DNA of 32,000 bases, taken from the NCBI GenBank assembly GCA_020025775.1, contig JAHHRN010000001.1, positions 345,348-377,347 of the forward strand. The letters are read 5' to 3'. Positions 5,413 through 22,943 of this stretch are shown here, piece by piece (the stretch's first letter is position 1; each line of letters opens with the position of its first letter). Made by a program: the position numbers and the translations under genes. This DNA comes from Acutalibacter sp. (lineage in GTDB: Bacteria > Bacillota > Clostridia > Oscillospirales > Acutalibacteraceae). The notes beneath the pieces were generated by a model. It made no database searches and was not told the origin of the DNA. It saw nothing but the letters and a program-made list of their open reading frames with translations.

Positions 5413-5910
5413 ATGGAAAAAAAGAAGAAACTCAGTAAAAAGCAAGCGGATTTTTGCAGATTTTATGTAAAAACGCGCAACGGCAGGGAAGCGGCACGCG
5501 CCGCAGGCTTTCCCGTTTTTCCCGAGCAAACGGCAAATAAGCTGCTCTCGGAAAAGGCGGTGCAAAAGGAGATTGCCGCCCTCGAAGCCGAGGAAAAAAC
5601 CGTGGAGGCGGAGCTGATTGCAGGCTATCGCCGTTTGGCGTTCGGCTCGGCGGCAGATGCGGTGCGCCTGCTCTTTTCAGAAAATCCCGCCGCGGAATTT
5701 GACCTCGACAGCCTCGATTTATTTATGGTTTCGGAAATTAAGAGACCCAAAACGGGCGGCATGGAGATTAAATTTTTCGACCGCTTAAAGGCACTCGAGA
5801 AGCTGGCGGAATTAAAGGGCGGCGACAAGGAGACGGCAGAGCCCTTCTATAAGGCCCTCGAAAAATCAGCGTTGGCGCTCCAAAACGGCGGTGAAACAGC
5901 ATGCGAATAG
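5413..5910 (+). CDS. terS: phage terminase small subunit
   Basis: 165 aa. The N-terminus LSKKQADFCRFYVKTRNGREAARAAGFPVFPEQTANKLL matches the HTH signature of Terminase_2-type small subunits. It lies immediately upstream of terL and overlaps it (ATGCGAATAG at 5901-5910). Confidence 0.8.
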   Translation: MEKKKKLSKKQADFCRFYVKTRNGREAARAAGFPVFPEQTANKLLSEKAVQKEIAALEAEEKTVEAELIAGYRRLAFGSAADAVRLLFSENPAAEFDLDSLDLFMVSEIKRPKTGGMEIKFFDRLKALEKLAELKGGDKETAEPFYKALEKSALALQNGGETACE

Positions 5911-7166
5911 ACGAATTCACCGAGTTTTCCGAAAAGCAGTTAAAGCTGCTTTGCTGGTGGTGTCAGGACAGCCCCTATAAAAATCGCGATGCGGTCATTT
6001 GCGACGGTGCGGTGCGCAGCGGCAAAACGGTCTGCATGTCGCTGTCGTTCATCTTTTGGGCGTTTTACCGCTTCAATGACACCTCGTTTGCGCTTTGCGG
6101 CAAAACGATTATGGGGCTTCGTCGCAATGTATTAACACCGCTTTTGCCCCTGCTTTCCCAACTGGGCTTTACCTGCAAGGAGCAGGTTTCCAAGCATTAT
6201 TTAGAAATTTCTAAGGGAGAAAGAACCAATCGCTTTTATCTTTTCGGCGGCAAGGATGAATCCTCTGCCGCACTCATTCAGGGTATGACCCTTGGCGGCG
6301 TCATGCTCGACGAAGCGGCACTGATGCCACGTTCGTTTTGCGAACAGGCGATTGCACGTTGTTCCTTAGAGGGCGCAAAGCTCTGGTTCAACTGCAATCC
6401 CGAGCATCCCGCACACTGGTTTTATAAGGAATGGATTTTGAAAAGTGAGGAGAAAAACTGCCTATATCTCCATTTTCAAATGGAGGACAATCCCACGCTT
6501 TCCGAAAAGACCCTACAGCGTTACCGAAGCCTTTACAGCGGCGCGTTTTATAAGCGCTTCGTTTTAGGGCAGTGGGTGGCGCAGGACGGGCTTGTTTATC
6601 CGTTCTTTGACTCGACCTATCTCTTTGATGCACCGAAAACATGCAGTCGTTATATCGTTTCGTGTGACTACGGCACAGTCAACCCGACTTCTATGGGTCT
6701 TTGGGGCGAAAAGGACGGCTGTTGGTATCGCTTGAAGGAATTCTATCACGACTCAAAGCAGAAAGGCTTTCAAATGACCGACGAGGAATATTACCGTTCG
6801 CTTTGCACTCTCGTCGGCTCACGTAAGGTGGAGCGTGTGATTGTTGACCCCTCGGCGGCATCCTTTATCGCGTGCATCAAGCGGCACGGCAAATTCACCG
6901 TGACCCGCGCGCAAAACGATGTTTTAAGCGGTATTCGCAAGACCTCGGATGCACTCAAAAACAAGGAGATTCGTATAACCAAGGAGTGTACGGATGCTAT
7001 TCGCGAATTTTCACTTTATCGCTGGGATGAAAGTGCCCGTTACGATGCGGTGAAAAAAGAGCATGACCACGCTATGGATGATATCCGTTATTTTGTGACA
7101 ACAGCACTCGAAGCGGAAGAGGACAGCTTCTTTGTTCTCACGACCGCGAGAGAAGGGAGGTGCTGA
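5901..7166 (+). CDS. terL: phage terminase large subunit
   Basis: 421 aa with Walker A GAVRSGKT and Walker B GGVMLDEAA. The C-terminal nuclease-domain acidic motifs VIVDPSAASF and DHAMDDIRY are characteristic of PBSX/SPP1-like TerL. Confidence 0.9.
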   Translation: MRIDEFTEFSEKQLKLLCWWCQDSPYKNRDAVICDGAVRSGKTVCMSLSFIFWAFYRFNDTSFALCGKTIMGLRRNVLTPLLPLLSQLGFTCKEQVSKHYLEISKGERTNRFYLFGGKDESSAALIQGMTLGGVMLDEAALMPRSFCEQAIARCSLEGAKLWFNCNPEHPAHWFYKEWILKSEEKNCLYLHFQMEDNPTLSEKTLQRYRSLYSGAFYKRFVLGQWVAQDGLVYPFFDSTYLFDAPKTCSRYIVSCDYGTVNPTSMGLWGEKDGCWYRLKEFYHDSKQKGFQMTDEEYYRSLCTLVGSRKVERVIVDPSAASFIACIKRHGKFTVTRAQNDVLSGIRKTSDALKNKEIRITKECTDAIREFSLYRWDESARYDAVKKEHDHAMDDIRYFVTTALEAEEDSFFVLTTAREGRC

Positions 7167-7167
7167 T

Positions 7168-8364
7168 TTGGCTATTTTAGAAAGATTCAGAAAATCCAAA
7201 ACTAGAAAAGAACAGAAAGAGCCTGTGCTTTCGGTAGAGGGACAGGAAAAGAAGCATCCGTTTTTACTGCTTTCAGAATATGTCGCACCGCCGTCTGTGA
7301 GCGGGGATTTATTTTTATCTTTGCGCGAAGCGATTCCGATTATTGACGCGGCGATTACGAAGCTCGTTAGGCTCACCGGCGGCTTTTATGTGGAATGCGA
7401 TTCCCCGCGTTTTCAAAAGGTTTTGGACCGCTTTCAGGAGGAAATCCCCTCGGACTGCGGCAGTGTATCGCTCCAAAGCTTTCTCGATACCTATTTTGAG
7501 GAGCTTTTGACCTTCGGCACGGCAGTGGCGGAAATGGTAAAGGATGAGGACGGCGCGATTTCCTATTTATATACCGCGCCGCGTAAGGATTACCTTTTAA
7601 AGCGCTCCAAAACGGATTTCAAACGGGCACAGGTGCTTTTAAATGACGGCGGCAACGGGACTCCACTTCCGAGACAGGAAAATTTCCTCACTACGGCGCT
7701 CAACGCCCAGCCCGGTGCGGTATACGGCACATCCATTTTAGAGGGCTTGCCGTTTGTCAGCTCCGTGCTTTTGAAAATCTATGAATCCATAGAGAAAAAC
7801 TGGGAGCGTGTGGGCAATGTGCGTTTCGCCGTGACCTATAAGCCGCCGGAGGATTTGGGCGGTAAGGCGTTCGCGAAAGAACGTGCGATGCAGATTGCTA
7901 ACGAGTGGAGCAGTGCGATGCGTAGCGCCGAGGTGCGCGATTTTGTGTCGGTCGGGGATGTGCAGATTAAAGCTATCGGTGCGGATAATCCGATTTTAGA
8001 CAGTGAAATCCCCGTGCGCCAGATGCTCGAGCAGATTGTGGCGAAGCTCTCTTTGCCGCCGTTCATGCTTGGTCTTTCCTGGTCGACCACCGAACGTATG
8101 GCGGCGGAGCAGGAGGATGTTTTAACAACGGAGCTTTTGCACTATCGCCGTGTGCTCACCCCTGTCATCCAGCAAATCTGCAAAACGCATTTGCTCGCCT
8201 TCGGCTACACGGGTGAGATTCGCGTGCACTGGAAGGACATCACCTTAGAGGATACACTCGACAGGGCACAGGTACGCAATTTGGATGCCAAGACACAGGA
8301 AATCTTAGAAAAGCTCTCGAAAGAGGGCAAAAAAGAGGAGGAAGAACATGCAAAAGAGCTTTGA
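7168..8364 (+). CDS. putative phage portal protein
   Basis: About 400 aa, directly between terL and the protease gene, with an acidic C-terminal tail. I prefer the TTG at 7168 because GGGAGG lies 7 nt upstream and it sits 1 nt after the terL stop. The ORF track begins at an in-frame TTG at 7132. The function is assigned from size and position only. Confidence 0.6.
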   Translation: MAILERFRKSKTRKEQKEPVLSVEGQEKKHPFLLLSEYVAPPSVSGDLFLSLREAIPIIDAAITKLVRLTGGFYVECDSPRFQKVLDRFQEEIPSDCGSVSLQSFLDTYFEELLTFGTAVAEMVKDEDGAISYLYTAPRKDYLLKRSKTDFKRAQVLLNDGGNGTPLPRQENFLTTALNAQPGAVYGTSILEGLPFVSSVLLKIYESIEKNWERVGNVRFAVTYKPPEDLGGKAFAKERAMQIANEWSSAMRSAEVRDFVSVGDVQIKAIGADNPILDSEIPVRQMLEQIVAKLSLPPFMLGLSWSTTERMAAEQEDVLTTELLHYRRVLTPVIQQICKTHLLAFGYTGEIRVHWKDITLEDTLDRAQVRNLDAKTQEILEKLSKEGKKEEEEHAKEL

Positions 8365-9316
8365 CGCGAATGCGGCGGGCACAGAGGTGCCGAGCGACGA
8401 AACCATGGCGCTCATCAACCGCTTTACGCAAAAGGAGCTGGGAAAGGATGAGGTCTTTGTCTTTTCCGCCGTGCTTTGCGACAACGAAATCGACCGTGAT
8501 TTCGAACGCTTTTCGGCAGAAAGCTTAAAAGCCCTTGCCCCCTTGTTTTTGGGCAAGACGGCAATTAAAAATCACAGCATGAATGCCGATGACCAGAGCG
8601 CCAGAACCTTTAAAACGGAGGTGATTTGCGACGAAACACGAAAGAACAGCCTCGGCGAGCCTTACACCTATTTAAAGGCTTATTGCTATATGCCGAGACT
8701 GCCCAAAAACGAAGAACTGATTGCGGAAATCGGTGCAGGTATTAAAAAGGAGGTCTCGGTGAGCTGTGCGGTGCAAAAGGCGGTTTGCTCCGTCTGTGGT
8801 AAGGATGAAAGACAGGAGCCTTGCCAGCATCGCCGCGGCAGAATCTACGGCGACACCCTTTGCCATTTCAGCTTAGAAGAGCCGACCGATGCCTATGAGT
8901 GGTCCTTTGTTGCCGTGCCTGCACAGAAAAATGCGGGTGTGACCAAGAGCTTTTCTCTCGAAAAGGTTTTGGAAAAGGCGGTGAAAACCGAAAAGGCCGA
9001 GGGAATTTATCTCACCAAGGCCGAAGCCGGTAAACTGCAAAAGGAATTTGCGGCGTTAAAGGCAAAAGCGGCGGACGGAGAGCGTTATTTGGCGGTATTG
9101 CGCGAAACGTTTCTGAAAGAAAGTGCTAAGGCGTTCCCGACGTTTTCCGAGGAAATGCGTCAGGCGATTTGCCGTGACCTTTCCACCGAAGAGCTGCAAA
9201 CCGCCTGCGAGGCATTTAAAGAAGCCCGCAAAACGGCGCAAATCCCCGTACCGCTTTTGGCGGCAAGAAAAAACACAGGTGAAAAAGCCGTGCAGAATAC
9301 GGCATTCAAATTTTAA
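8348..9316 (+). CDS. putative prohead protease fused to a scaffold-like C-terminal domain
   Basis: 322 aa with a strong SD (GAGGAGG) 6 nt before the ATG. The N-terminal half has S78-like elements: DRDFERF, GKTAIKNH and VSVSC. The C-terminal ~120 aa is A/K/E-rich and helical-looking (KAEAGKLQKEFAALKAKAADGERYL), like a scaffolding domain. It occupies the canonical position between portal and capsid. Confidence 0.5.
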   Translation: MQKSFDANAAGTEVPSDETMALINRFTQKELGKDEVFVFSAVLCDNEIDRDFERFSAESLKALAPLFLGKTAIKNHSMNADDQSARTFKTEVICDETRKNSLGEPYTYLKAYCYMPRLPKNEELIAEIGAGIKKEVSVSCAVQKAVCSVCGKDERQEPCQHRRGRIYGDTLCHFSLEEPTDAYEWSFVAVPAQKNAGVTKSFSLEKVLEKAVKTEKAEGIYLTKAEAGKLQKEFAALKAKAADGERYLAVLRETFLKESAKAFPTFSEEMRQAICRDLSTEELQTACEAFKEARKTAQIPVPLLAARKNTGEKAVQNTAFKF

Positions 9317-9336
9317 AAGAGAAAGGAAATGTTATT

Positions 9337-10338
9337 ATGGCACAATTTGAAACTTTAAAACTCGACAAGGGTCTTTATACTTCTGCAAAGGGCTTTACCG
9401 CAGAACTGGAAAATGTGGACCCGTCCGAAAACTATAAGGGCACCGCCTTAGAGGGCCTCGATGCGTTTGAAAGACAGTTAAAGCGCTTTGACATTAAAAT
9501 TCACGGTGCCGGCAGCGACAGCATCGAGAAATTCTTTAAAACCAGCGACAGCGCCGCGCTTTTCCCCGAATATGTGGCACGTGCCGTGCGCAAGGGCTTG
9601 GAGGAAGCGGACGTCTTGAAGGACCTTATCGCCACCAAGACCAATATCAACGGCATGGATTACCGCACCATCGCTTCCGTGCCGACCGATGCGGAAAAGG
9701 AACTCAAAATCACTGCCGAGGGTGCGGCAATTCCCGAAACTGCCGTTCATACACAGGAAAATCTTGTGAAGCTTAAAAAGCGCGGCAGAATGCTCGTAGC
9801 CTCCTATGAAGCCCTCCGCTTCCAGAGACTCGACCTTTTCACCGTCACCTTGAAGCAGATTGGCGCGTACATCGCCAGAACCCAGCTCAAGGATGCTGTG
9901 GAGGTTCTCGAAAAGGGCGACGGCAACAGCAATCCCGCACCTGTGGTCAGCCTCAATTCTAAGCCCCTCGACTATGCGGCTTTGGTCGATTTCTGGAACG
10001 GTTTCGACCCTTATGCACTCAATACCATGATCGCCGCACCCGACAGAGCGGCGGCAATTCTCAAAATGCCCGAAATGCGCGACGCGGCGGCAGGTCTTAC
10101 CTTCCACGGCACCGGCAAGGCAGTGACACCCTTCGGTGCAAAGCTCTTAAAGAGCGCGGCTGTACCGACCGGCAAGCTCATCGGTCTTGATAAGACCTGC
10201 GCCCTCGAAATGGTAACTGCCGGCGGCATTTTGACCGAATACGATAAGCTCATCGACAAACAGCTCGAGCGTGCGGCGATCACCCAGATTTCCGGCTTCT
10301 CCAAAATCTACACAGACGCGGCTAAGGTGCTCGCTTAA
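9337..10338 (+). CDS. phage major capsid protein (HK97-fold type)
   Basis: 333 aa in the canonical position after protease/scaffold. The C-terminal region (GLDKTCALEMVTAGGILTEYDKLIDKQLERAAITQISGF) resembles the conserved end of HK97-like capsid proteins. The SD is AAAGGAAA. Confidence 0.7.
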   Translation: MAQFETLKLDKGLYTSAKGFTAELENVDPSENYKGTALEGLDAFERQLKRFDIKIHGAGSDSIEKFFKTSDSAALFPEYVARAVRKGLEEADVLKDLIATKTNINGMDYRTIASVPTDAEKELKITAEGAAIPETAVHTQENLVKLKKRGRMLVASYEALRFQRLDLFTVTLKQIGAYIARTQLKDAVEVLEKGDGNSNPAPVVSLNSKPLDYAALVDFWNGFDPYALNTMIAAPDRAAAILKMPEMRDAAAGLTFHGTGKAVTPFGAKLLKSAAVPTGKLIGLDKTCALEMVTAGGILTEYDKLIDKQLERAAITQISGFSKIYTDAAKVLA

Positions 10339-10355
10339 CGCCGGGAGGTGGAGAG

Positions 10356-10718
10356 ATGCTGGATACCATTCAGATAGCCGGGATTCTTATGCGGTTCGGC
10401 GGCCTCTCCAAGGAAGAGCTTGCCGATGCCATGCCCGTGGTCGCGGTTTGTGCCGCCCAGTGCTTTAAAAGACTGAAAGACCCCAAATTTGCGAGCGAGC
10501 CTGCTGTCTTAGAGGCGGCGGCAGCGATTGCCAATTATCGCCTTTTACTGCGTTCCCCGAAGCTGCGCGAGGGCGAAACTGCATTTCGTGCCGGAGAGGT
10601 CAGTGTGCACAGCAGTCCGCAGGTGCTTTTGGAAGCGGCTGTGTGTCTGCGGGATGACTGTCTGCTTGCCGCCGCACCGTATTTAAAAGACGATGATTTC
10701 GTCTTTGCGCAGGTGTAG
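10356..10718 (+). CDS. putative head-tail connector/adaptor protein
   Basis: 120 aa, Ala-rich and helical-looking, first gene after the capsid gene. This is a position- and size-based call (gp6/gp15-like). The SD is GGGAGGTGGAG. Confidence 0.4.
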   Translation: MLDTIQIAGILMRFGGLSKEELADAMPVVAVCAAQCFKRLKDPKFASEPAVLEAAAAIANYRLLLRSPKLREGETAFRAGEVSVHSSPQVLLEAAVCLRDDCLLAAAPYLKDDDFVFAQV

Positions 10719-10720
10719 CC

Positions 10721-11020
10721 ATGGAGTTTAACAGCAGTTATGCGCGCAGTGTGTATCTCGAGGACGGGGCTTGGAAGTCTCCGCTTTTTAAAGCGTATTT
10801 ACAGCCGACCAAGCGCCTTCCGGAAGAAGATGTTACGCTTCTCGGCAGAATCGTGCGCGAACCCTATCTTTACATAGGGCCTGCCGCGCATGATCTTAGT
10901 AGACTTTCGAAAGAAGCTCGCCTTGTGGACAGCGAACACAGTCGCTATCGCATTTTGCACGCGCAGAAAATTTATAAAGGGGATAAGGTCTTTTACATTC
11001 GGGCCATTTTAGAAAAATAA
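10721..11020 (+). CDS. putative head-closure protein
   Basis: 99 aa. Its start lies 2 nt after the previous stop (TAGCCATG). The function is assigned from size and position only. Confidence 0.35.
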   Translation: MEFNSSYARSVYLEDGAWKSPLFKAYLQPTKRLPEEDVTLLGRIVREPYLYIGPAAHDLSRLSKEARLVDSEHSRYRILHAQKIYKGDKVFYIRAILEK

Positions 11021-11038
11021 CGGAAAGGAAGAGGAACT

Positions 11039-11470
11039 ATGCTTGTAGCCAGTGGCTATTTAGATAAGCTGGTGCAGGATTTCACAAGCGACCCGAGCTT
11101 TTCGGATTTGGATTTTAAAATCGCTTATGAAAACAGCATTTGCACAACGCCGGTGTCGAAACCGATTGTGGCATTCACAACCGATAAAACAACTATCGGC
11201 GAACAGCTGACACGCTATAATCCCGACGGCTCTCAGATTATTTCGAAGGGTCGAATTGTGGATACAGTGGTGAAAGTGGCAATTTTTGTGCCGTATGAAA
11301 GCGGCGCGGTCAAATCGTTTCAGGTCTTTGACCGGGTGTTTACCAAGTTGCTCTATGAGTCGGCGTTGAATATCACCGGCGCCCATTGCTATGACAGCAA
11401 CTATAACAAAAAGTGCGGCGCCTTGGAGCTGAACGCGGATTTCACCATTCACACAAGAGAAGAAAAGTAA
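11039..11470 (+). CDS. putative neck / head-completion protein
   Basis: 143 aa, the last gene of the operon, with SD GGAAAGGAAGAGG upstream and a terminator after it. The function is inferred from position only. Confidence 0.35.
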   Translation: MLVASGYLDKLVQDFTSDPSFSDLDFKIAYENSICTTPVSKPIVAFTTDKTTIGEQLTRYNPDGSQIISKGRIVDTVVKVAIFVPYESGAVKSFQVFDRVFTKLLYESALNITGAHCYDSNYNKKCGALELNADFTIHTREEK

Positions 11471-15141: not shown

Positions 15142-15168
15142 ACTGCGTCCTCCTTTGTAGTTACTTAT

Positions 15169-15332
15169 AAAAAAAGACCTTCGACAAAGCTTGGACTTAC
15201 TTTGTCGAAGGTCTCGCTACCGAAAATTGAACTGCACCGAAACACTCGACACATTTCCAATCTTAAGTCCCTCAGCCAGCCGCAGTGCGACACGATGTTG
15301 ACAGAGGGAAAAAAGCTACTCCCCTTCAAGGA
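15169..15332 (-). promoter_or_regulatory. yybP-ykoY (Mn2+) riboswitch with terminator expression platform
   Basis: The minus-strand leader contains the two hallmark segments UUGAAGGGGAGUAGC (plus coordinates about 15316-15330) and UAGCGAGACCUUCGA (about 15206-15220). The P1 pairing is UUGAAGG/CCUUCGA. The 3' P1 strand GACCUUC is also the start of a perfect 14-bp terminator stem (15176-15189 / 15200-15213) followed by U7 (15169-15175). It sits directly upstream of a P-type ATPase, a classic context for this riboswitch class. Confidence 0.75.
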
Positions 15333-15355
15333 ATAGTATCTACATACTGTAGTAA

Positions 15356-15385
15356 AGAATACCATATTGACCCTAGGATTGTCAA
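15356..15385 (-). promoter_or_regulatory. candidate sigma-A promoter for the riboswitch-ATPase transcript
   Basis: On the minus strand there is TTGACA (15385-15380), an 18-nt spacer and TATTCT (15361-15356), about 25 nt upstream of the aptamer. The -10 element is weak. Confidence 0.35.
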
Positions 15386-15392
15386 GCGAATT

Positions 15393-16559
15393 TTAAGAAA
15401 CCGAAATCGAGTGCGCAAAACCCGCATCTTGTATATTTTGCGTTGTATTTTCGCGGTTGGTTAAAACCACAACGGTCTTATCCTTCGCATCGGTTTCCAG
15501 CTTGGCTTCCACCGCCGCGGCGGCAGGCACAAAGTATTCGGCTTGAGAAAGCTCAGCAAAGCCGGCATTGTTGGCTTTTAAAACAGCTTCCACTTCCGCG
15601 GTTTTTTGAAAATCTATGGTAATAAAATTGCAGGGCGCGCTGAGCAAGGTACCGTCATACGCCACCGCATTGCCGTAAAGAATATCGGACACAGTGAGGG
15701 TGACGGAAAACTCTAAATCCCCAAGCGCATCCTTGACCTTTTGCAAAAATTCCTGCAAAGCCGCATTTTTGGAAATCCCCTTGACGTCTGCATAGGGGAA
15801 AACCGCCGTTTCGGCAAAGCGGCCGACCGGGAACTGCACGCCGTCCAAAAGCACATAATCTGCACCGAACGTTGGGGCTTCTTTGATAAGCCCTAAAAGA
15901 TAGTTTACCGCGACATCCGCATAAGGATTCAGCCAGGGTTTACCGTCCTTTTGTGCGCTTTCGTCCAGCCAAAGGCTGACACCGTCTGCCAAGGTGATAG
16001 CCGCACCCGGAAGAGAGGATGCCGCCAGAGTATCCTCAAAGCAGGCGTATTTCGCAATGATTTTATAGCCTTTCGCCTTTAAGGTTTCAATGCTGTCCAT
16101 AAAGGTCGGGTAGGCACGGGTGGAAGCACCGATGTCTGCCGCCGTGGAATCCATGGAAGTATAGCTCAAAAAGCCCGAAGGTGCTTTGTATTCAATCATT
16201 ACGGCATTGGCATTTTCATTTTGTAAATCTTCCAAAAACAGCTCTAAGGCGATGCCGCCGTTTAAGGCTTCCTTGGGCATCTCCAAAGCCACTAAATGCT
16301 CTGTCGACGGAAGCGGTGTGTGATTTTCTTCGCGAATGGGACGGTTGGAAAGAAATACCGCGAGATACACGAGGAAAAAGGTGAGCAGAAAGAGGAAGAC
16401 CAGCGCCAACGCATAAAAGACATTGGAACGCTGTTCGCGTTTTCTTCGTTCGCGGGTTTCACCGATGGCGTAGGTGCTGTGGGAACGCCCGGGATATTCT
16501 TTAGAAAACGGATAATAGCTTTTTCTGTGATGCTTTAAACGTTTGGAATCTTTCAACAT
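15393..16559 (-). CDS. membrane-anchored putative glycoside hydrolase-like protein (DUF4015/GHL type)
   Basis: 388 aa with a basic cytoplasmic N-terminus and one TM (VFYALALVFLFLLTFFLVYLAVFL). The extracytoplasmic domain has strings resembling DUF4015: NANAVMIEYKAPSGFLSY, YKIIAKYACFEDTLAA and GKPWLNPYADVAVNYLLGLIKEAPTFGADYVLLDGVQFP. Its start lies 1 nt after the RnfA-like stop. Confidence 0.55.
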   Translation of the reverse strand: MLKDSKRLKHHRKSYYPFSKEYPGRSHSTYAIGETRERRKREQRSNVFYALALVFLFLLTFFLVYLAVFLSNRPIREENHTPLPSTEHLVALEMPKEALNGGIALELFLEDLQNENANAVMIEYKAPSGFLSYTSMDSTAADIGASTRAYPTFMDSIETLKAKGYKIIAKYACFEDTLAASSLPGAAITLADGVSLWLDESAQKDGKPWLNPYADVAVNYLLGLIKEAPTFGADYVLLDGVQFPVGRFAETAVFPYADVKGISKNAALQEFLQKVKDALGDLEFSVTLTVSDILYGNAVAYDGTLLSAPCNFITIDFQKTAEVEAVLKANNAGFAELSQAEYFVPAAAAVEAKLETDAKDKTVVVLTNRENTTQNIQDAGFAHSISVS

Positions 16560-16560
16560 A

Positions 16561-17154
16561 TTATAAGCTCAGACTCCTTCCGGTAAATCCGGTAAAGGCG
16601 AGCGACAAAAGCGCCGCATAGAGAAAAATAGCGGGTGTGCCCTTGAATGCCGCCGGGATAGCTTCGTTTTTGTCTAAGGCGCGAAGGCCTAAGTTTAAAA
16701 GCAAAACCGCAAGCACAAAGGCAAGACCGGCACCGATGCCGACACCGAGTGCTTCGAAAATACCGAAAGCGGCACGCTGATTGATGAAAGGAATTGCCAA
16801 AACCAAGGTGTTAAAGGCAGCAATACCAACGCGACGCACGGTGCGCTTTTTCGCTTTGAATACATAGAGCACAAGCACGGTAGTGATGAGATAAAACACA
16901 ATCAGCACGCTGACAAAAAGAGCGGCGTGACCGTAAACGCTAAGCGCTCGAACGAACGGGATTCTTTCCAGAAGGACACAGGTGAGAGAAACAAAAGTGG
17001 AAAAATAAATAATGAAAAGGCTTAGCGGGAAGAGCTGACGGGGCTTTGCCGACATACGCAGGGCCTCATCTGCACCGTAGCCGCCCGTGAAAATCAGATT
17101 TTGCAAAAGGCAGGCTAAAAAGGCCGTGGAAAATAAACTGCTGATTACGGTCAT
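16561..17154 (-). CDS. RnfA/NqrE-like membrane protein lacking the Fe-S cysteine ligands
   Basis: 197 aa and collinear with RnfA: the C-terminus PAAFKGTPAIFLYAALLSLAFTGFTG compares with [26 protein letters not shown]. The FLGLCPF motif is replaced by FTGGYGA. The TNC motif is replaced by INQ. Confidence 0.8.
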   Translation of the reverse strand: MTVISSLFSTAFLACLLQNLIFTGGYGADEALRMSAKPRQLFPLSLFIIYFSTFVSLTCVLLERIPFVRALSVYGHAALFVSVLIVFYLITTVLVLYVFKAKKRTVRRVGIAAFNTLVLAIPFINQRAAFGIFEALGVGIGAGLAFVLAVLLLNLGLRALDKNEAIPAAFKGTPAIFLYAALLSLAFTGFTGRSLSL

Positions 17155-18278
17155 TTTGTATCGCCGCCTTTCTCTGTATCTTTCGGGGCTTCCTCGGAAG
17201 CCGTAGTTTCTTCGTGGGCTTTCTTATAGGCATCCAAATCCGAAAGAATTTCGTCGAAGTCTAAAAGATAGCTGTCACGTACGGCGCGGTGCTCTCTTCT
17301 TTCTTCGAGCTTTGCCGTTTCTTCGAGAGAAAGCGGCTTTTTCTGTTCGGGCTTTGCCGCCGATTTTTTCGGCTTCTTTTCTTTCTTTTCCTTTTTAGGC
17401 TTCGGCGCTTTTTCCGCCTTTACTTTTTCTGCTTTCGGTTTTTTGGATTTTGCTTTTTCGGATTTCGGCTTTTCTGCCTTTTCTTTTTTCGGCTTAGCCG
17501 ATTTTTTCATGCGCGGTACGGTTTCGGTTTCATCCTCTTCGTCCGCGTAGGGGTTAAATTCGGTATCTACAAGAGATTTAAAGGAATCTAAATGAGACTG
17601 CGAAATTTCCTGCATGCTGAACGCGCGTTCGGGATGTGCATCCGGTACGGTTCTTGCCAAAATGGCCTTTACCACTGCGGCAAGGAAGCCGAGGATTAAA
17701 AAGCCGCCGAAGGGCAGGAGCATACCGCTCAGCTTTACGGGGAAGTGCAAATCTACATCATAAATGGTGCCGCTGCCGATAATTTCACGAATCGTACCGA
17801 CCAGTAAAATAACGAACACGTAGCCGAGAGAGGCGAAAATCGCATCTGCCAAAGAGCTCTTTACAGAATGCTTGACGGCGTAACGCTCACAGTGCAGGGC
17901 AATGAGAGAATTTACAGCAATCAGCGGCAAAAAGATGCCGGCATAAAGAGACTCATTCGGTGCTACATAATTGAAAAAGGCGAAAACGGGAAGATTCAGC
18001 AGTACGCCGAGTAAGGCGTAAATCGGCATGCGAAGCCAACGCTTCACCTTTTTGAGTGCTAAACTTGCAAAAAATTCAATGAAAACAAGCTCCACGCAAG
18101 AGGCAACCGCCAAAATAATGGAGGACTTGAGAGAAACCGTCATTGCAAGTACGGGCGAAAGTCCGACCGCCTCAAATAAAATGGGGTTTTTAATCAGCGC
18201 ACTGGAGAGTATGCGCTTTTTAAGACTACCTTTCGGTTCAGCCATTTTGCGCACCCCCTTCTGCTTCGGTTTCTTCAT
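17151..18278 (-). CDS. RnfE/NqrD-like membrane protein lacking the Fe-S cysteine ligands, with a long Lys/Glu-rich C-terminal tail
   Basis: 375 aa. The first ~235 aa are collinear with RnfE: NPILFEAVGLSPVLAMT compares with NSALVQLLGLCPLLAVT, LPLIAVNSLIALHCERYA with IPLIVTNCIVVGRAEAFA, and GTIREIIGSGTIYD with GSLREIIGNGTLFD. A ~140-aa low-complexity tail follows (KKSAKPKKEKAEKPKSEKAKSKKPKAEK...). The start may instead be the ATG at 18245. Confidence 0.85.
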   Translation of the reverse strand: MKKPKQKGVRKMAEPKGSLKKRILSSALIKNPILFEAVGLSPVLAMTVSLKSSIILAVASCVELVFIEFFASLALKKVKRWLRMPIYALLGVLLNLPVFAFFNYVAPNESLYAGIFLPLIAVNSLIALHCERYAVKHSVKSSLADAIFASLGYVFVILLVGTIREIIGSGTIYDVDLHFPVKLSGMLLPFGGFLILGFLAAVVKAILARTVPDAHPERAFSMQEISQSHLDSFKSLVDTEFNPYADEEDETETVPRMKKSAKPKKEKAEKPKSEKAKSKKPKAEKVKAEKAPKPKKEKKEKKPKKSAAKPEQKKPLSLEETAKLEERREHRAVRDSYLLDFDEILSDLDAYKKAHEETTASEEAPKDTEKGGDTK

Positions 18279-19626
18279 CGGAAACTGCTTTAGAGACTGC
18301 TTCGGCTTTTTGTGATGCCTCCGGGACAGCCGGTGCGGCGTTCTTGGTCGGCTCAGTCTGCGAAGCGGCAGTTTCTTTTGCTTCTTTCTCTTCGAGAACC
18401 GTGGAATTTAAAATCTGTTCTTCTAATGTGGGCGCAGTTTCTTCAGTTGCCTTGGGAAGCTCTGCGGTGGATTCTTCCAAAGCTTCTTCGTTGATTTCGG
18501 TTTCACTTTCTTTAAACCATTGCTCATGTGCTTTTTCTTCTTCTAAAGCACGGCGCTTCTGGCGAGCCTTGGAAAGACGTTTTCTCTCAAAGCCGGTGAG
18601 CGGTAAATGGTTAAAGGTAGGTGCTAAAACGTTCATTAAAAGAATTACGAAAATAACACCCTCTTCAAAGGCACCGAAGCGGCGCAGAAGCATAGTGCAG
18701 AAGCCTGCCACAACGCCGTAAAGGATTCTGCCGTAAAAACGTTTGGGCAAAAGAATCTCATTGGGCAATAAGAAAATGGCGGCAAACAGCAAAAGACCGG
18801 AGGAAAGCTCCATAAAGACGGACTGGAAGCGTCCACTTAAAATTCTCGGGAACAGGAATGCGCCGATTGCGCAGGTGAGCAGGAAAGAAGCGGAAACTTC
18901 AAACGCCTTGAAGCGACGAATCGCCAAATAGCAAAGCGCACCCAAAAGGGCAATGATACAGGTTGCACCCATGGGGCCTGCGAAGTCACCCAGTAAAACC
19001 ATAAGATAGTTGGTGGAATGGTTGCCGAGCGCGGTACTGTTCGAAAGCATACTGGCAAGCGATACACCGGGTGTAAAGGCGGCTGTGCCGTACAGGCTGA
19101 CCGGTTCACCGACGCCGGGTACTGCGGGATAGCAAAAGAGAATCTTCGGGAAGCAGACCGCTAAAAAGCAAAGGCCTGCCGCTGTAGGCGAAAAGAGCGT
19201 GGTTCGCGCATTACCGAAGGGCAGCTTTGCAACCAAAATCGCAAACGCCGCACCGATAGACGCAAGCCAAAGCGGTGCGCTGGCAGGCAGACAAAGGGCA
19301 ATGCAAACACCCGTAACCACAGCGGAAAGGTCACGCGGGGTCGGGAAGTTGTGTAGCATTTTTCCGCCCAGATATTCTAGCACTACGGCGGTGAGGACGG
19401 ATGTTAAAATCAAATAAAAGGCGTGCGCGCCGTAATAATAAAGAGAAATGAGCGTCGGCGCTGCTAGCATGATGAGTAAATCCAGCATGGAGCGCTGTGT
19501 GGACTTGATGTCCGCTTTGACTTCGGGCGTAAAGATCTGCCCGTCGTCCGCTGTGAATGCATCTTGACGCAAGATTTCCACCTCGTTTTCCAAATTTTGT
19601 GCGTTGCAAGACAAGTTGCCCTGCAA
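18238..19626 (-). CDS. RnfD/NqrB-like membrane protein with degenerate flavinylation motif and acidic C-terminal tail
   Basis: 462 aa and collinear with RnfD: [53 protein letters not shown] compares with [62 protein letters not shown] sits where DGISQATPL (Dxx[ST]xAT) is expected. The last ~115 aa are Glu/Ala/Thr-rich. The start is uncertain: TTG at 19626 as in the track, or TTG at 19572, which is preceded by GAGGTGG. Confidence 0.85.
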   Translation of the reverse strand: [462 protein letters not shown]

Positions 19627-19669: not shown

Positions 19670-20206
19670 TTGAAAATGTATAAGGGCTCGAAAAGCCGCT
19701 TGCTTGTCCGCATAAGCCGGGAAGAACTGGAGGATTTTTGCCTAAGCCTGGATTCCATTTGTAAAAAGAATCGAGAAACGAAGCTCTTTTTACAGGAAAT
19801 TCTGGGGCTTGCCGCGGAACGCCACGGCTTTTTTTGGCAAAGGGATGCGGCGCTTCGCATCGACGTATTGCCGAGCGAGGGCGGCGGCTGTTTTTTGATT
19901 TTTACACAGGAAAGCCCCGCAAAAACGGGTACTTCGGCAGAGAAAACCACACAACAGCTCATAGCTTTTCCCAATACAAATGCCTTTTTAGATTGCTTGA
20001 ATGCGTATTTAAAAACGGCTTCTTCCGAAACGAAAGGCGCAGATTTTTGGTATCGCCGCGCGCAAAGGTTTTATGCGCTTTTACCTGCTCAGCAGGAAGC
20101 CCTTTTGCCGCTCTTTTCAGAATACGGCAGTGTGCACCGCCTCACAGCGGAGGCCTGCGCGCGTTTTCGGGAAGAAGCAGAATATTTAAGCGTTTTCGGC
20201 GAGTGA
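19670..20206 (+). CDS. MecA-like adaptor protein (short form)
   Basis: 178 aa. The N-terminus SRLLVRISREELEDFCLSLD and the C-terminus FYALLPAQQEALLPLFSEYGSVHRLT parallel the MecA N- and C-terminal signatures (I..v.f.is..dle.rg ; YYL..d....l.l.EYG). This is a weak motif-level call. Confidence 0.45.
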   Translation: MKMYKGSKSRLLVRISREELEDFCLSLDSICKKNRETKLFLQEILGLAAERHGFFWQRDAALRIDVLPSEGGGCFLIFTQESPAKTGTSAEKTTQQLIAFPNTNAFLDCLNAYLKTASSETKGADFWYRRAQRFYALLPAQQEALLPLFSEYGSVHRLTAEACARFREEAEYLSVFGE

Positions 20207-20845
20207 TTTGAATTCTGCCACAGCGGCTTTCATGTCGCTCTGCGAGAAAAGGGCACTGCCCGAAACAAAGTTGTTGGCACCTTTCTTTGCGGCGAGTACG
20301 ATAGTATCCTTATTGATGCCGCCGTCTACCTGAATTTCCATAGAAAGGTTACGCTTTTGAAGCTCTTCTTTAAGAGCAGTAATTTTAGAAAGCTGATCTT
20401 CCATGAAGCTCTGACCGCCGAAGCCGGGCTCTACGGTCATCACGAGAACCATGAAAAGTCTGTCTAAATAGGGGAATACTGTTTCAATCGGTGTGGCGGG
20501 CTTTACAGCCAAAGCCGGCTTCATGCCTGCCTGCTCGATGGCGGTGATGGTTTCTTCAATATCGCTCTTGCTTTCCACGTGGAAGGTGAAGGAGTCCGCG
20601 CCTGCCGCGGCAAAATCCTTTACGAAGAAAAGCGGGTCATCTACCATTAAATGGGCGTCAAACGGTAAGTCGGAAACACGGCGAATGGCTTTGACAATCG
20701 GGGCACCGAGGGTTAAGTTCGGTACGAAGTGACCGTCCATAACGTCGATGTGTACCCAATCGGCACCGGCATCCTTGAGACGCTGTAATTCTTCTTTTAA
20801 AATACTGTAATCCGCAGAGAGAATGGAAGGGGAAATTTTAACCAT
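20186..20845 (-). CDS. rpe: ribulose-phosphate 3-epimerase
   Basis: 219 aa with ISPSILSADY, HIDVMDGHFVPNLTLG, MTVEPGFGGQSF and VDGGIN, all classic Rpe motifs. Confidence 0.95.
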   Translation of the reverse strand: MVKISPSILSADYSILKEELQRLKDAGADWVHIDVMDGHFVPNLTLGAPIVKAIRRVSDLPFDAHLMVDDPLFFVKDFAAAGADSFTFHVESKSDIEETITAIEQAGMKPALAVKPATPIETVFPYLDRLFMVLVMTVEPGFGGQSFMEDQLSKITALKEELQKRNLSMEIQVDGGINKDTIVLAAKKGANNFVSGSALFSQSDMKAAVAEFKSLAENA

Positions 20846-20884: not shown

Positions 20885-21685
20885 TTAAGCAGTTGTTTCG
20901 GCAGTAGCTTCGGTTTCCACGGGAGCGGGCACTTCGGTTACCGGCAGAGACGGTACTTCAGTGGTCGGTGCCTCGGTTGCAGGTGCTTCGGTCGGATTCG
21001 GCGTTGCGGTTTCGGGTGCCGAGGTGGACTGCAAAGCACTGATATAATAACTGCCCTCGTTTTCGCGAAGGGTTACACGCATATATTTGTCGGGCTCGGG
21101 CGGCAACATATTGCCGTTGGAATCCTGCTGCCACTGGTCACCGGATAAGTAACCAACGGTTAAAATCACGGCGTTATTTTTCTTTTCTTTTTCCAAAACC
21201 TTGGGGGTATACATCGGTACAATACCGGTCAGCGGAATCACATAGACCTGCTTGTTGGCGTCATAGGCGAAATCATAGCCGTAACCCTCAATAGAAGCGT
21301 GGGTGGGCTGGATTTCCGAACCGAAGAGGCGTTTAAATTCGGCGTTGACTTCTGCCTCGGGCAAAAGCATGCCGTTGTCGCCGTATTCGTAATCATCGGG
21401 GGAAAGTCCCTTTTTTAGAATGGACCAAATCGAAATATCCACAAGCTGTGAGGGGTTGGCTTTCGTAAGGTCATCAAAGGGGTCGGGGTCATTCATGACT
21501 ACGGGAATTAGCATTTTGTTGTATTCCTCGTAGTTTTTGCTTTTTTCAATGCCTTTTTTCGTGGCATTCACACCGGCAACTAAAATGGTAACTACACCGA
21601 TTATGGCAAGCACGGCAATGAGAAGCCCCAAGGGGAATGCCCAGCGGCGCGTACCTTTTTTATGTGTTTTCTGTTCGTTTGCCAT
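20885..21685 (-). CDS. membrane-anchored protein of unknown function with Thr/Pro/Ala/Glu-rich C-terminus
   Basis: I prefer the ATG at 21685, which has AAAGGAG 8 nt upstream and sits 1 nt after the proA stop. The track starts at 21706. There is an N-terminal TM (WAFPLGLLIAVLAIIGVVTILVAGV) and a C-terminal low-complexity stretch TSAPETATPNPTEAPATEAPTTEVPSLPVTEVPAPVETEATAETTA. Confidence 0.6.
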   Translation of the reverse strand: MANEQKTHKKGTRRWAFPLGLLIAVLAIIGVVTILVAGVNATKKGIEKSKNYEEYNKMLIPVVMNDPDPFDDLTKANPSQLVDISIWSILKKGLSPDDYEYGDNGMLLPEAEVNAEFKRLFGSEIQPTHASIEGYGYDFAYDANKQVYVIPLTGIVPMYTPKVLEKEKKNNAVILTVGYLSGDQWQQDSNGNMLPPEPDKYMRVTLRENEGSYYISALQSTSAPETATPNPTEAPATEAPTTEVPSLPVTEVPAPVETEATAETTA

Positions 21686-21686
21686 G

Positions 21687-22943
21687 TTACACTCTCCTTT
21701 GTCCATTGCCGGAAATCTGATATTTAAAGGATGTTAATTGCGGCAGACCTAAAGGGCCTCTTGCGTGGAGCTTCTGGGTAGAAATACCGATTTCCGCGCC
21801 GAAGCCGAAGCAACCGCCGTCTGTGAATCGGGTGGAAGCATTGTGGTAAACCGCCGCGGAATCAACTTCTTGCAAGAAGCGCTTTGCCGCCGCATCGTTA
21901 TCCGTCACAATGCAGTCACTGTGCCCGGTGGAGTATTTATAAATGTGGGAAATGGCTTCGTCTAAGGAATCCACAATCGCCACGGACATTTTATAGTCAA
22001 GATATTCGGTCGCAAAGTCTGCCTTGGTTGCCGCTTCAATCTGCGGTAAAATCGCCTTGGCACGTGCATCTCCATAGAGAATTACGTCTTTTTCTTTTAA
22101 TGCCTCGTAAAGCATCGGCAGGGCTTTTTCGGCAATATCCTTGTGCACGAGCAGGCTTTCCGCCGCATTGCAAACCGAAACGCGGGAGGTCTTGGCGTTA
22201 AAGACGATGTCTCGTGCCATTTCGAGGTTGGCATCCTTGTCTACATAAATGTGGCAGTTACCGACGCCGGTTTCAATCACGGGGACTGTTGCGTTTTCCA
22301 CCGTTGCACGAATGAGGTTTCTGCCGCCGCGCGGAATCAGCACGTCTACATATTCATTGAGACGCATGAGCGCATTAGCACTTTCACGGCTGGTATCTTC
22401 CACAAAGCCGATGCAGGCAGACGGAAGAGCCGTTCCCTCAAGTGCCTTTTGCATAACGGAAGCAATCGCCTTGTTGGAGTGAATGGCTTCCTTGCCGCCG
22501 CGCAAAATTACAGCGTTACCGGATTTTAAGCAAAGCGAAGCGGCATCGCTCGTCACATTCGGACGTGCCTCGAAAATCACCGCAATGACGCCGAGCGGTA
22601 CGCTGACTTTTTGAATATGTAAGCCGTTCGGGCGCACGGTGTCGGAAAGCACCTTGCCCACCGGGTCGGGAAGCTCAGAAACTTCCTTTACGCCCTGTGC
22701 CATACCCTCAATGCGTTCTTTCGAGAGCGCCAAACGGTCGAGCATGGAAGTAGCCATACCATTTTGACGGGCGGCTTCCAAATCCTTTTCGTTTTCTTCT
22801 AAAATATAATCACAGTTTTCCGAAAGAGCCTTGGCAATGGCGAGAAGCGCTTCGTTTTTCTGCTCGGTTGTTGCCGTGAGCAGTGCTCTTGCGCCCTGCT
22901 TTGCCGCTTGACCCAATGTTTCTAATGTGTTCAATGTATTCAC
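21687..22943 (-). CDS. proA: glutamate-5-semialdehyde dehydrogenase (gamma-glutamyl phosphate reductase)
   Basis: 418 aa with a ProA-type aldehyde dehydrogenase pattern. The catalytic Cys lies in the context SRVSVCNAAESLLVH, and LIPRGG is present. It uses a GTG start and follows proB. Confidence 0.95.
   Translation of the reverse strand: MNTLNTLETLGQAAKQGARALLTATTEQKNEALLAIAKALSENCDYILEENEKDLEAARQNGMATSMLDRLALSKERIEGMAQGVKEVSELPDPVGKVLSDTVRPNGLHIQKVSVPLGVIAVIFEARPNVTSDAASLCLKSGNAVILRGGKEAIHSNKAIASVMQKALEGTALPSACIGFVEDTSRESANALMRLNEYVDVLIPRGGRNLIRATVENATVPVIETGVGNCHIYVDKDANLEMARDIVFNAKTSRVSVCNAAESLLVHKDIAEKALPMLYEALKEKDVILYGDARAKAILPQIEAATKADFATEYLDYKMSVAIVDSLDEAISHIYKYSTGHSDCIVTDNDAAAKRFLQEVDSAAVYHNASTRFTDGGCFGFGAEIGISTQKLHARGPLGLPQLTSFKYQISGNGQRRV

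Follow-up and report, generated by a model that had tools for sequence, protein, structure and literature searches.

A redox-ligand-depleted relative of the RnfD/RnfE/RnfA membrane core, frequently accompanied by a DUF4015 protein, in Acutalibacter sp. and other Oscillospirales

The 32 000-nucleotide stretch of Acutalibacter sp. DNA described here (contig JAHHRN010000001.1, positions 345,348 to 377,347; referred to below as the window) carries four consecutive minus-strand genes at 15393-19626, of which three encode relatives of RnfD, RnfE and RnfA, the membrane core of the Rnf oxidoreductases, and the last encodes a membrane-anchored protein with a DUF4015 domain. The three membrane proteins belong to an Rnf-derived D/E/A set that is monophyletic, is maintained by selection and is devoid of the subunits and ligands of the Rnf electron path. 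The complex that they form in the window is, with high probability, not an Rnf-type oxidoreductase; a non-redox state is very likely for the window and is not proven for the whole family. As a tentative model, to which we assign a probability of roughly 0.4 when taken as a whole, we propose a redox-dead module of D, E and A that would translocate a cation or solute along a gradient, often together with a DUF4015 glycan enzyme.

Gene organization

The RnfD/NqrB-like polytopic membrane protein (18238-19626, minus strand; open reading frame (ORF) of 462 amino acids) matches PF03116 (E = 2e-62, 211.7 bits), while the RnfE/NqrD-like protein (17151-18278, minus strand; ORF of 375 amino acids) and the RnfA/NqrE-like protein (16561-17154, minus strand; 197 amino acids) both match PF02508 (E = 5e-32, 111.6 bits and E = 2.6e-14, 54.1 bits, respectively). 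The DUF4015 protein (15393-16559, minus strand; 388 amino acids) matches PF13200 with E = 6e-20 and 71.9 bits against a cut-off of 27, and the matches of all four proteins exceed the Pfam gathering scores. A preliminary description of this DNA, made from the sequence without database searches, had called the three membrane genes collinear with RnfD, RnfE and RnfA, and both Pfam and alignments to solved chains agree. The nearest NCBIfam models are likewise rnfD, rnfE and rnfA, with the Nqr models scoring lower; the scores are 142 bits against a curated cut-off of 207.05 for the D-like protein (TIGR01946), 89.4 against 213.4 for the E-like protein and 36 against 229.3 for the A-like protein.

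The four genes are translationally coupled. The D-like and E-like genes overlap by 41 nucleotides as ORFs, or by 8 nucleotides with the starts called in near-identical contigs; the overlap between the E-like and A-like genes is 4 nucleotides, and a gap of 1 nucleotide, as originally described, leads into the DUF4015 gene. Near-identical contigs and ribosome-binding sites indicate that the D-like protein likely starts at a TTG at about 19572 (444 amino acids; ribosome-binding site GAGGTG) and that the E-like protein likely starts at the ATG at 18245 (364 amino acids). A strong terminator-like hairpin, with a 17-bp stem followed by a T run (15174-15215, minus strand), lies 180 nucleotides 3' of the DUF4015 gene, probably at the 3' terminus of the operon, and at the same time falls within the leader of the next gene, which encodes a P-type ATPase. 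No RnfC, RnfG or RnfB was detected in the 32-kb window, as had been reported, when it was searched by phmmer with a canonical Oscillospiraceae rnfCDGEAB set, and NqrA, NqrC and NqrF genes are also absent from it.

Cofactor sites

The ligand columns were placed by HMMER alignment to the solved Rnf/Nqr chains of PDB entries 7ZC6, 9ERI, 8AHX and 7XK3, with ligand identities taken from the structure paper on the Acetobacterium woodii Rnf complex (PMC11889175), in which mutation of the cysteines or of the riboflavin ligands abolishes activity (PMC11889175). All four cysteine columns are substituted in the window. The RnfE-like protein has serine at both, with the canonical GMCP around C25 reading GLSP and the canonical VVNC around C108 reading AVNS, exactly where the preliminary description had placed the changes. 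In the RnfA-like protein C25 (canonical GICP) is replaced by the aspartate of GADE, within GGYGADEA, and C113 (canonical TTNC) by the threonine of AFNT, within AAFNT. Both RnfA columns had correctly been described as lacking cysteine and the first had been found in the right segment, but the second is this threonine and not part of the downstream INQ to which it had been assigned.

The flavin mononucleotide (FMN) attachment motif of RnfD, canonically DGVTTAT (in TLDGVTTATP), aligns with YGTAAFT in the window; the loss of Asp(-6), Ser/Thr(-3) and Ala(-1) that had been read from this motif is upheld by the alignment. The riboflavin ligands N123 and D249 (A. woodii numbering) are replaced by Ser and Asn, respectively, two losses that had not been listed before. 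Retained in the window are the equivalents of RnfE R67, E115, L103, V106 and N107 and of RnfA N112, all of which have been implicated in Na+ entry and binding in the A. woodii Rnf complex (PMC11889175). The core of the E-like protein spans about residues 20-205. An AlphaFold2 model of the A-like protein (predicted local distance difference test score (pLDDT) of 70) has NqrE/RnfA chains as its top PDB matches, with a template-modelling (TM) score of ∼0.6.

Relatives and conservation

A scan of one genome per species gave 63 loci, a sample that the two peptide patterns used in the scan bias toward the crown group; distant representatives (Paludicola, Caproiciproducens and several metagenomic members) were added through look-ups of their genomic context. 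At each locus ±10 kb of DNA was examined, and ORFs were called and searched with the window proteins and with the canonical Oscillospiraceae rnfCDGEAB set (locus L068). The organisms of the scan include Candidatus Fimenecus, Acutalibacteraceae, Candidatus Limimonas, Fimivicinus and Eubacterium sp. CAG:180. A homology search gave some 65 close RnfD-like clusters, all from metagenome-assembled genomes of Oscillospiraceae, Ruminococcaceae or Clostridiales and a few isolates.

The order D-E-A is common to every locus (about 70, in Oscillospirales) within an overall pattern of rpe-[mecA-like, opposite strand]-[RnfC-like]-D-E-A-[DUF4015]. No match to RnfG or RnfB was found within 10 kb at any locus, whereas the control locus L068 yielded all six subunits, and no locus encodes an FMN_bind (RnfG-like) protein or an NAD-binding domain. 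Whether the clade always lacks RnfC, RnfG and RnfB, as the preliminary description asked, can be affirmed at these loci for RnfG and RnfB and not for RnfC, a degenerate relative of which is encoded at five basal loci. These RnfC-like proteins keep both 4Fe-4S CxxCxxCxxxCP motifs intact, have lost the GMGGAGFPT loop for FMN and NADH and score below the Complex1_51K threshold.

Substitution of the cysteine ligands extends across the family. At the first RnfE cysteine column the residues are A30/C22/F6/G3/S2/Y1/P1 and at the second S39/P20/A5/T1, with cysteine in 0 of 65; the first RnfA column reads S46/D17/R1, with cysteine in 0 of 64, and the second T59/C4/A1. At most two of the four cysteines occur together at any of the 65 loci. 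The flavinylation motif D..[ST][GS]AT occurs in none of 66 RnfD-like sequences, seven of which retain N123; the basal RnfD-like proteins keep N123 together with D or E at position 249 and the crown group to which the window belongs does not. The residues of the proposed ion path are close to invariant, with equivalents of RnfE R67 in 64 of 65 sequences, of E115 in 61 of 65 and of N107 in 65 of 65, Leu or Ile at the L103 column in 65 of 65, and RnfA N112 in 64 of 64. A search of 1.84 billion representatives with an RnfA-like profile gave 854 proteins at E ≤ 1e-3 and 262 at E ≤ 1e-10 (representatives at 50% identity). Among 116 full-length top matches, 112 are without the first cysteine, 76 are without both and three have both, and two of the distant matches that could be placed share the rpe/MecA/D/E/A/DUF4015 context.

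All four genes show dN/dS (the ratio of nonsynonymous to synonymous substitution rates) of 0.04-0.25 in pairwise comparisons restricted to pairs with dS < 1, the A-like gene being the most constrained (0.04-0.12). The ORFs are intact, of fixed length and with overlapping start and stop codons across about 70 loci, and the clade has invariant motifs of its own, namely GGYG[AS][DS]EA[IV]R and AAFNT in the A-like protein and FPRxxTGR in the D-like protein. A neighbour-joining tree, which carries no support values, places the clade as a single group apart from canonical RnfD and NqrB, a point that the preliminary description had proposed to check, with the RnfC-bearing members (Caproiciproducens, L063-L065) basal. 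A 417-residue RnfD-like protein (P0097) forms a sister branch to the cofactor-less clade and is also without the flavinylation motif.

Charged tails

The E-like and D-like proteins of the window end in charged extensions. That of the E-like protein (17154-17663, minus strand) comprises 170 residues, is rich in Lys and Glu and is disordered; that of the D-like protein (18238-18603, minus strand) is a Glu-rich C-terminal segment of 122 residues. The RnfD-like tail of L077 exceeds 350 residues. Long tails (loci L003-L062) track the absence of the RnfC-like gene: the RnfE tail is short (14-28 residues) at all five RnfC-bearing loci and reaches 100-330 residues, rich in Lys, Glu, Asp, Pro and Ala, at all RnfC-less loci except Paludicola. 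A conserved short motif in the RnfE-like tail of the window, RDSYLLDFDEILSDLDAYKK (17220-17279, minus strand), may form an amphipathic acidic helix and is followed by the terminal ...GGDTK. Most RnfC-less subclades have a related motif near the end of the tail (DYLxDFDEMLxELD, YESEFDDILLDLE, ELESFADVLAALN and ELEELMSKSLDDII; overall DYLxDFDEILxELD and variants), and the RnfE tails share a GG[DE]E-type C-terminus. Since the RnfE-like protein has a basic N-terminus (11 Lys/Arg in 31 residues) and a strongly basic segment follows directly on the last helix of the RnfD-like protein, the tails of both proteins should be cytoplasmic.

The DUF4015 protein

The DUF4015 protein consists of a basic N-terminal peptide (about residues 1-47), one transmembrane helix (about residues 48-71) and a C-terminal triose-phosphate isomerase (TIM) barrel domain. 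The charge distribution around the helix predicts that the N-terminal peptide should be cytoplasmic and the barrel extracytoplasmic. The N-terminal peptide (16419-16559, minus strand), KSYYPFSKEYPGRSHSxYAIGETRERRKRE, surpasses much of the enzyme domain in conservation, which suggests a specific intracellular binding partner. In the alignment GxPWLNPY, D176 and E227 are invariant and D199 and D234 nearly so.

A homology search gave nine proteins, and the structure model is based on the resulting shallow alignment of ten sequences. The AlphaFold2 model is a TIM barrel with a mean pLDDT of 82, exceeding 90 in the core. Its nearest fold in a Foldseek search is Cthe_0052 (PDB code 4s1a; E = 2e-13), which is also the only PDB match at the sequence level (E = 4e-10). 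Cwp19 of Clostridioides difficile (PDB code 5oq2) was found with a Foldseek E value of 8e-11; its GHL10 domain has been shown experimentally to be a peptidoglycan lytic transglycosylase (PMC6016235). One homologue of the window protein matches both PF02638 (GHL10) and PF13200. The only paper found to mention DUF4015 describes its fusion to a YkyA domain, a domain whose other fusions are to polysaccharide deacetylase domains (PMC12700454). No reported activity for a PF13200 member was found in the literature; by analogy with these proteins, a cell-wall glycan is a reasonable candidate for the substrate.

Of 65 distinct loci with an RnfA-like gene, 46 have the DUF4015 gene, among them RnfC-bearing and very distant loci. 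Its co-occurrence with the clade, which the preliminary description had proposed to check, is frequent without being constant, one whole subclade being devoid of it.

Proposed function

The earlier suggestion that the Rnf scaffold persists here without Rnf-type redox chemistry is strengthened by its recurrence at about 70 loci, by the absence of RnfG and RnfB and by purifying selection. In the model that we propose, a paralogue of the Rnf membrane core (RnfD/E/A) would have ceased to be an oxidoreductase. Its pseudo-symmetric RnfE/RnfA-like pair may still bind a cation, either Na+ or H+, or perhaps a divalent metal ion or else a small polar solute, at the tips of the two half-helices, the former position of the Fe-S cluster. 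The site would now be lined by Ser, Ser, Asp/Glu/Arg and Thr together with two invariant Asn, and the pair would alternate between inward-open and outward-open states, making it a gradient-driven transporter or channel and not a redox-driven pump. The DUF4015 protein, with its single-helix anchor and its barrel outside, would take the topological place that RnfG has in the pump; it may cleave cell-wall glycan, in which case it would provide the product for transport or else have its position or activity governed by the complex. The charged tails with their acidic helix would have arisen on the loss of RnfC, which they probably replace as a cytoplasmic interaction surface.

Translocation of a cation or small solute appears the most economical function because the Na+-binding, alternating-access architecture and its residues are kept and the cavity is lined with oxygen atoms; RnfA and RnfE resemble alternating-access symporters (PMC12174285). 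The conservation of the Na+-path residues favours retained ion handling without proving it, and the resemblance of the DUF4015 fold to Cwp19 favours a cell-wall glycan role for that protein, likewise without proving it.

A number of observations weigh against this model. The argument for transport draws solely on ancestry and residue conservation, and the conserved ion-path residues could be structural instead of ion-binding. The model of the A-like protein is only moderately confident. DUF4015 is only distantly similar to Cwp19 (12% identity, TM score of 0.54), and members of glycoside hydrolase families GH31 and GH36 score nearly as well. The model does not account for the invariant rpe linkage or for the MecA-like neighbour. 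In the subclade without DUF4015 the A-like gene is followed by ordinary housekeeping genes; a replacement partner was sought there and rejected, as only cysteine desulfurase-like, ThiI and CinA genes are present. DUF4015 is thus not essential to the core function, and its frequent but not universal occurrence implies that the D/E/A trio has a function of its own. Finally, a hydroxyl persists at the column aligned with the FMN acceptor (Thr in the HMMER alignment of the window protein, Ser clade-wide in a MAFFT alignment; S63/T3 among the RnfD-like sequences), and many relatives retain riboflavin ligands and an Fe-S RnfC-like subunit, so that some redox role is possible in parts of the family.

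The alternative that survives best, although we regard it as unlikely, is that D/E/A regulates or scaffolds the remodelling of the cell wall and is not a transporter: as a pseudo-enzyme platform it would hold and switch the exposed DUF4015 enzyme, with ion flow possible as in MotAB, ExbBD or TolQR, and through its tails on the cytoplasmic side it would connect with the MecA-like adaptor and ClpC or with proteins of division or sporulation. The translational coupling of DUF4015 to the A-like gene, the strong conservation of its cytoplasmic N-terminal peptide and the resemblance of its fold to the lytic transglycosylase Cwp19 are consistent with such a platform, as are the recurrence of the MecA-like gene beside the cluster, even in distant members, and the conserved short motif, typical of partner binding, in the disordered tails; RnfG in the pump is similarly a mobile exo-domain on the same membrane face (PMC12174285). 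However, about 19 loci without DUF4015 keep D/E/A and the tails under the same constraint, the MecA-like gene is absent from many loci, and the conservation of the ion path fits transport equally well and does not discriminate. In an improbable but consequential version, the Rnf core would have become a machine powered by an ion gradient that drives or gates an extracellular peptidoglycan-cleaving enzyme at the RnfG site, with its tails bound by an adaptor of the MecA/ClpC type. Tol-Pal, ExbBD and MotAB follow a comparable logic, and, if true, this would be a new class of energized cell-wall remodelling complex in Gram-positive gut anaerobes.

We consider it quite improbable that a residual or altered redox function is carried by non-canonical cofactors, whether a non-covalent flavin in D, a metal bound by Asp/Glu/Ser/Thr in A/E or the Fe-S centres of the RnfC-like protein. 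Besides the intact CxxCxxCxxxCP motifs of the latter, this reading could invoke the N123 of basal members, the D249 retained by many, the Ser/Thr conserved at the FMN-acceptor-aligned column and the precedent of an Nqr/Rnf-like system that works without RnfD flavinylation (10.1101/2024.03.13.584918). Although conceivable for basal members, it is countered by the window lineage, which lends it no support, is without RnfC, has Ser for N123 and Asn for D249 and has replaced all four cysteines, and by the family at large, in which no locus has an FMN_bind protein or an NAD-binding domain and the RnfC-like protein has lost its GMGGAGFPT loop and falls under the Complex1_51K threshold; no electron-donor or electron-acceptor module remains.

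An ordinary Rnf complex assembled in trans with RnfC, RnfG and RnfB encoded elsewhere is very improbable. Database entries do name the D-like protein as an Rnf electron transport subunit D, and a canonical operon elsewhere in the genome is possible, and likely in some species, rnfCDGEAB being found in Oscillospiraceae; but electrons have no path, whatever the partners, with the four cysteines, the riboflavin ligands and the flavinylation motif gone, the scores lie far under the NCBIfam cut-offs and the clade stands as a monophyletic group apart from canonical RnfD. The ligand columns rule out the completion of a normal Rnf in trans. Least credible of all are decaying, functionless remnants of a duplicated rnf operon, a picture that the stepwise disappearance of subunits and ligands in the tree might evoke but that is contradicted by the intact, fixed-length, overlapping ORFs of about 70 loci, the dN/dS values, new invariant motifs (GGYGxxEAxR, AAFNT and FPRxxTGR) and a family of 262 representatives at 50% identity (E ≤ 1e-10); the dN/dS values and the new conserved motifs rule out pseudogenes.

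Comparison with known systems

The window set is homologous to, and collinear with, D/E/A of the Rnf complex (RnfCDGEAB; PDB codes 7ZC6, 9ERI and 8AHX) over the whole membrane core and has the same gene order. It keeps the PL..N motifs of the half-helices, the R67-E115 pair of RnfE and the equivalent of RnfA N112. It differs in having neither RnfG, RnfB and RnfC nor the four [2Fe-2S] cysteines, the FMN attachment motif of RnfD and the riboflavin ligands, in scoring below the family cut-offs and in the addition of long charged tails and a DUF4015 exo-enzyme. Na+-NQR (NqrA-F) stems from the same ancestor; it keeps the Fe-S centre of NqrD/E and the flavins of NqrB and NqrC and has gained NqrF, whereas the window set has lost the membrane cofactors. 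A precedent for the retention of a cofactor-free subunit exists within the superfamily in NqrA, the homologue of RnfC, which has lost all of its cofactors (PMC12174285).

The only reduced `Rnf-like' system described so far is the two-subunit pair of an RnfD-NAD-binding protein and RnfG (Meheust et al., 2021; 10.1101/2024.03.13.584918), which has a different architecture. In that system too an RnfD/NqrB-like protein without the flavinylated Thr occurs outside a full operon, but its RnfD-like domain is fused to PF00175 and is paired with a flavinylated RnfG/NqrC-like protein, with no RnfE or RnfA. The arrangement in the window is the reverse, with E and A present and with G and the NAD-binding domain absent; the RnfD-like protein consists of PF03116 and a low-complexity tail only, with no PF00175. 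Identity with the two-subunit system is ruled out by this difference in architecture. A different kind of partial Rnf was seen in Natronobacillus azotifigens (L069, 4635-7029), in which an RnfC-RnfD pair keeps the flavinylation motif (DATTQATP) and has no adjoining G, E, A or B genes.

The DUF4015 model has the same kind of TIM barrel as Cwp19/GHL10 (PF02638) and Cthe_0052 (4S1A); Cwp19 is anchored by CWB2 repeats and the DUF4015 protein by an N-terminal transmembrane helix.

A 2025 review of the Rnf/Nqr superfamily treats the cofactors of the membrane subunits as strictly conserved (PMC12174285). A literature search (DUF4015, Rnf-like, partial or second Rnf, pseudoenzyme) found no paper on the cofactor-less clade, in keeping with the earlier remark that no characterized example was known. 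The parts are familiar; what is unfamiliar is their lack of cofactors, the partners that they have gained and what they probably do. A large clade that is under selection without the membrane cofactors is a natural experiment that separates the ion-handling scaffold from redox chemistry, and it could help to decide whether the ion route runs through RnfA/E or through RnfD/NqrB. Because public records label the proteins `RnfABCDGE type electron transport complex subunit D' or `Rnf-Nqr domain containing protein', abundant gut Oscillospirales (Candidatus Fimenecus, Acutalibacteraceae and Ruminococcaceae) may be wrongly credited with Rnf energy conservation when their metabolism is reconstructed. 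The link to an exo-facing glycosidase-like protein, rpe and a MecA-like gene points to a new envelope or transport function in poorly studied anaerobes.

Neighbouring genes and other features of the window

The most constant neighbours of the cluster, which the preliminary description had missed, are rpe and the MecA-like gene. The former (20186-20845, minus strand) encodes ribulose-phosphate 3-epimerase (PF00834, E = 2.6e-73) and lies upstream of the cluster at every locus whose contig reaches upstream of D. In several loci it overlaps the start of D, as in L036, where rpe occupies 3629-4363 and D begins at 4360. Between rpe and D, and divergent from the latter, lies the gene for a MecA-like protein of 178 amino acids (19670-20206, plus strand; PF05389, E = 7e-9) of the ClpC adaptor family, which matches the N-terminal part of the MecA profile only and has no sequence match in the PDB. 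Many loci, the distant L001, L073 and L075 among them, have it in this place, and many others lack it. Between proA and rpe, the window and all close relatives (Candidatus Fimenecus and allies) share a conserved gene for a membrane-anchored protein of 273 amino acids (20885-21706, minus strand), with a C-terminus rich in Thr, Pro, Glu and Ala and without a Pfam match.

The remainder of the window contains housekeeping genes, two ABC exporters, a P-type ATPase, a two-component system and a small cluster of phage-head genes. This head and packaging cluster (5413-11470, plus strand), located between ABC exporter genes and the P-type ATPase, encodes small and large terminase subunits, a portal protein (phrog_30703, E = 1e-111), an unknown protein (phrog_16951), a major head protein (phrog_3922) and small ORFs. 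It is conserved in near-identical strains (L070 and L071), has no tail, lysis or integrase genes near it and could be a phage remnant, an element resembling a gene-transfer agent or a capsid-forming island.

The leader of the P-type cation ATPase gene (15142-15392, minus strand) contains a promoter-like TTGACA-18-TATTCT and a structured region (fold z = -4.3), followed by the 17-bp terminator hairpin with T7 and a ribosome-binding site. At the Rfam gathering threshold only tRNAs were found in the window and in the loci of seven relatives. Below it, the leader weakly matches the yybP-ykoY Mn2+ riboswitch (12.4 bits against a gathering score of 45, E = 0.18), and it may be a divergent metal-sensing attenuator.

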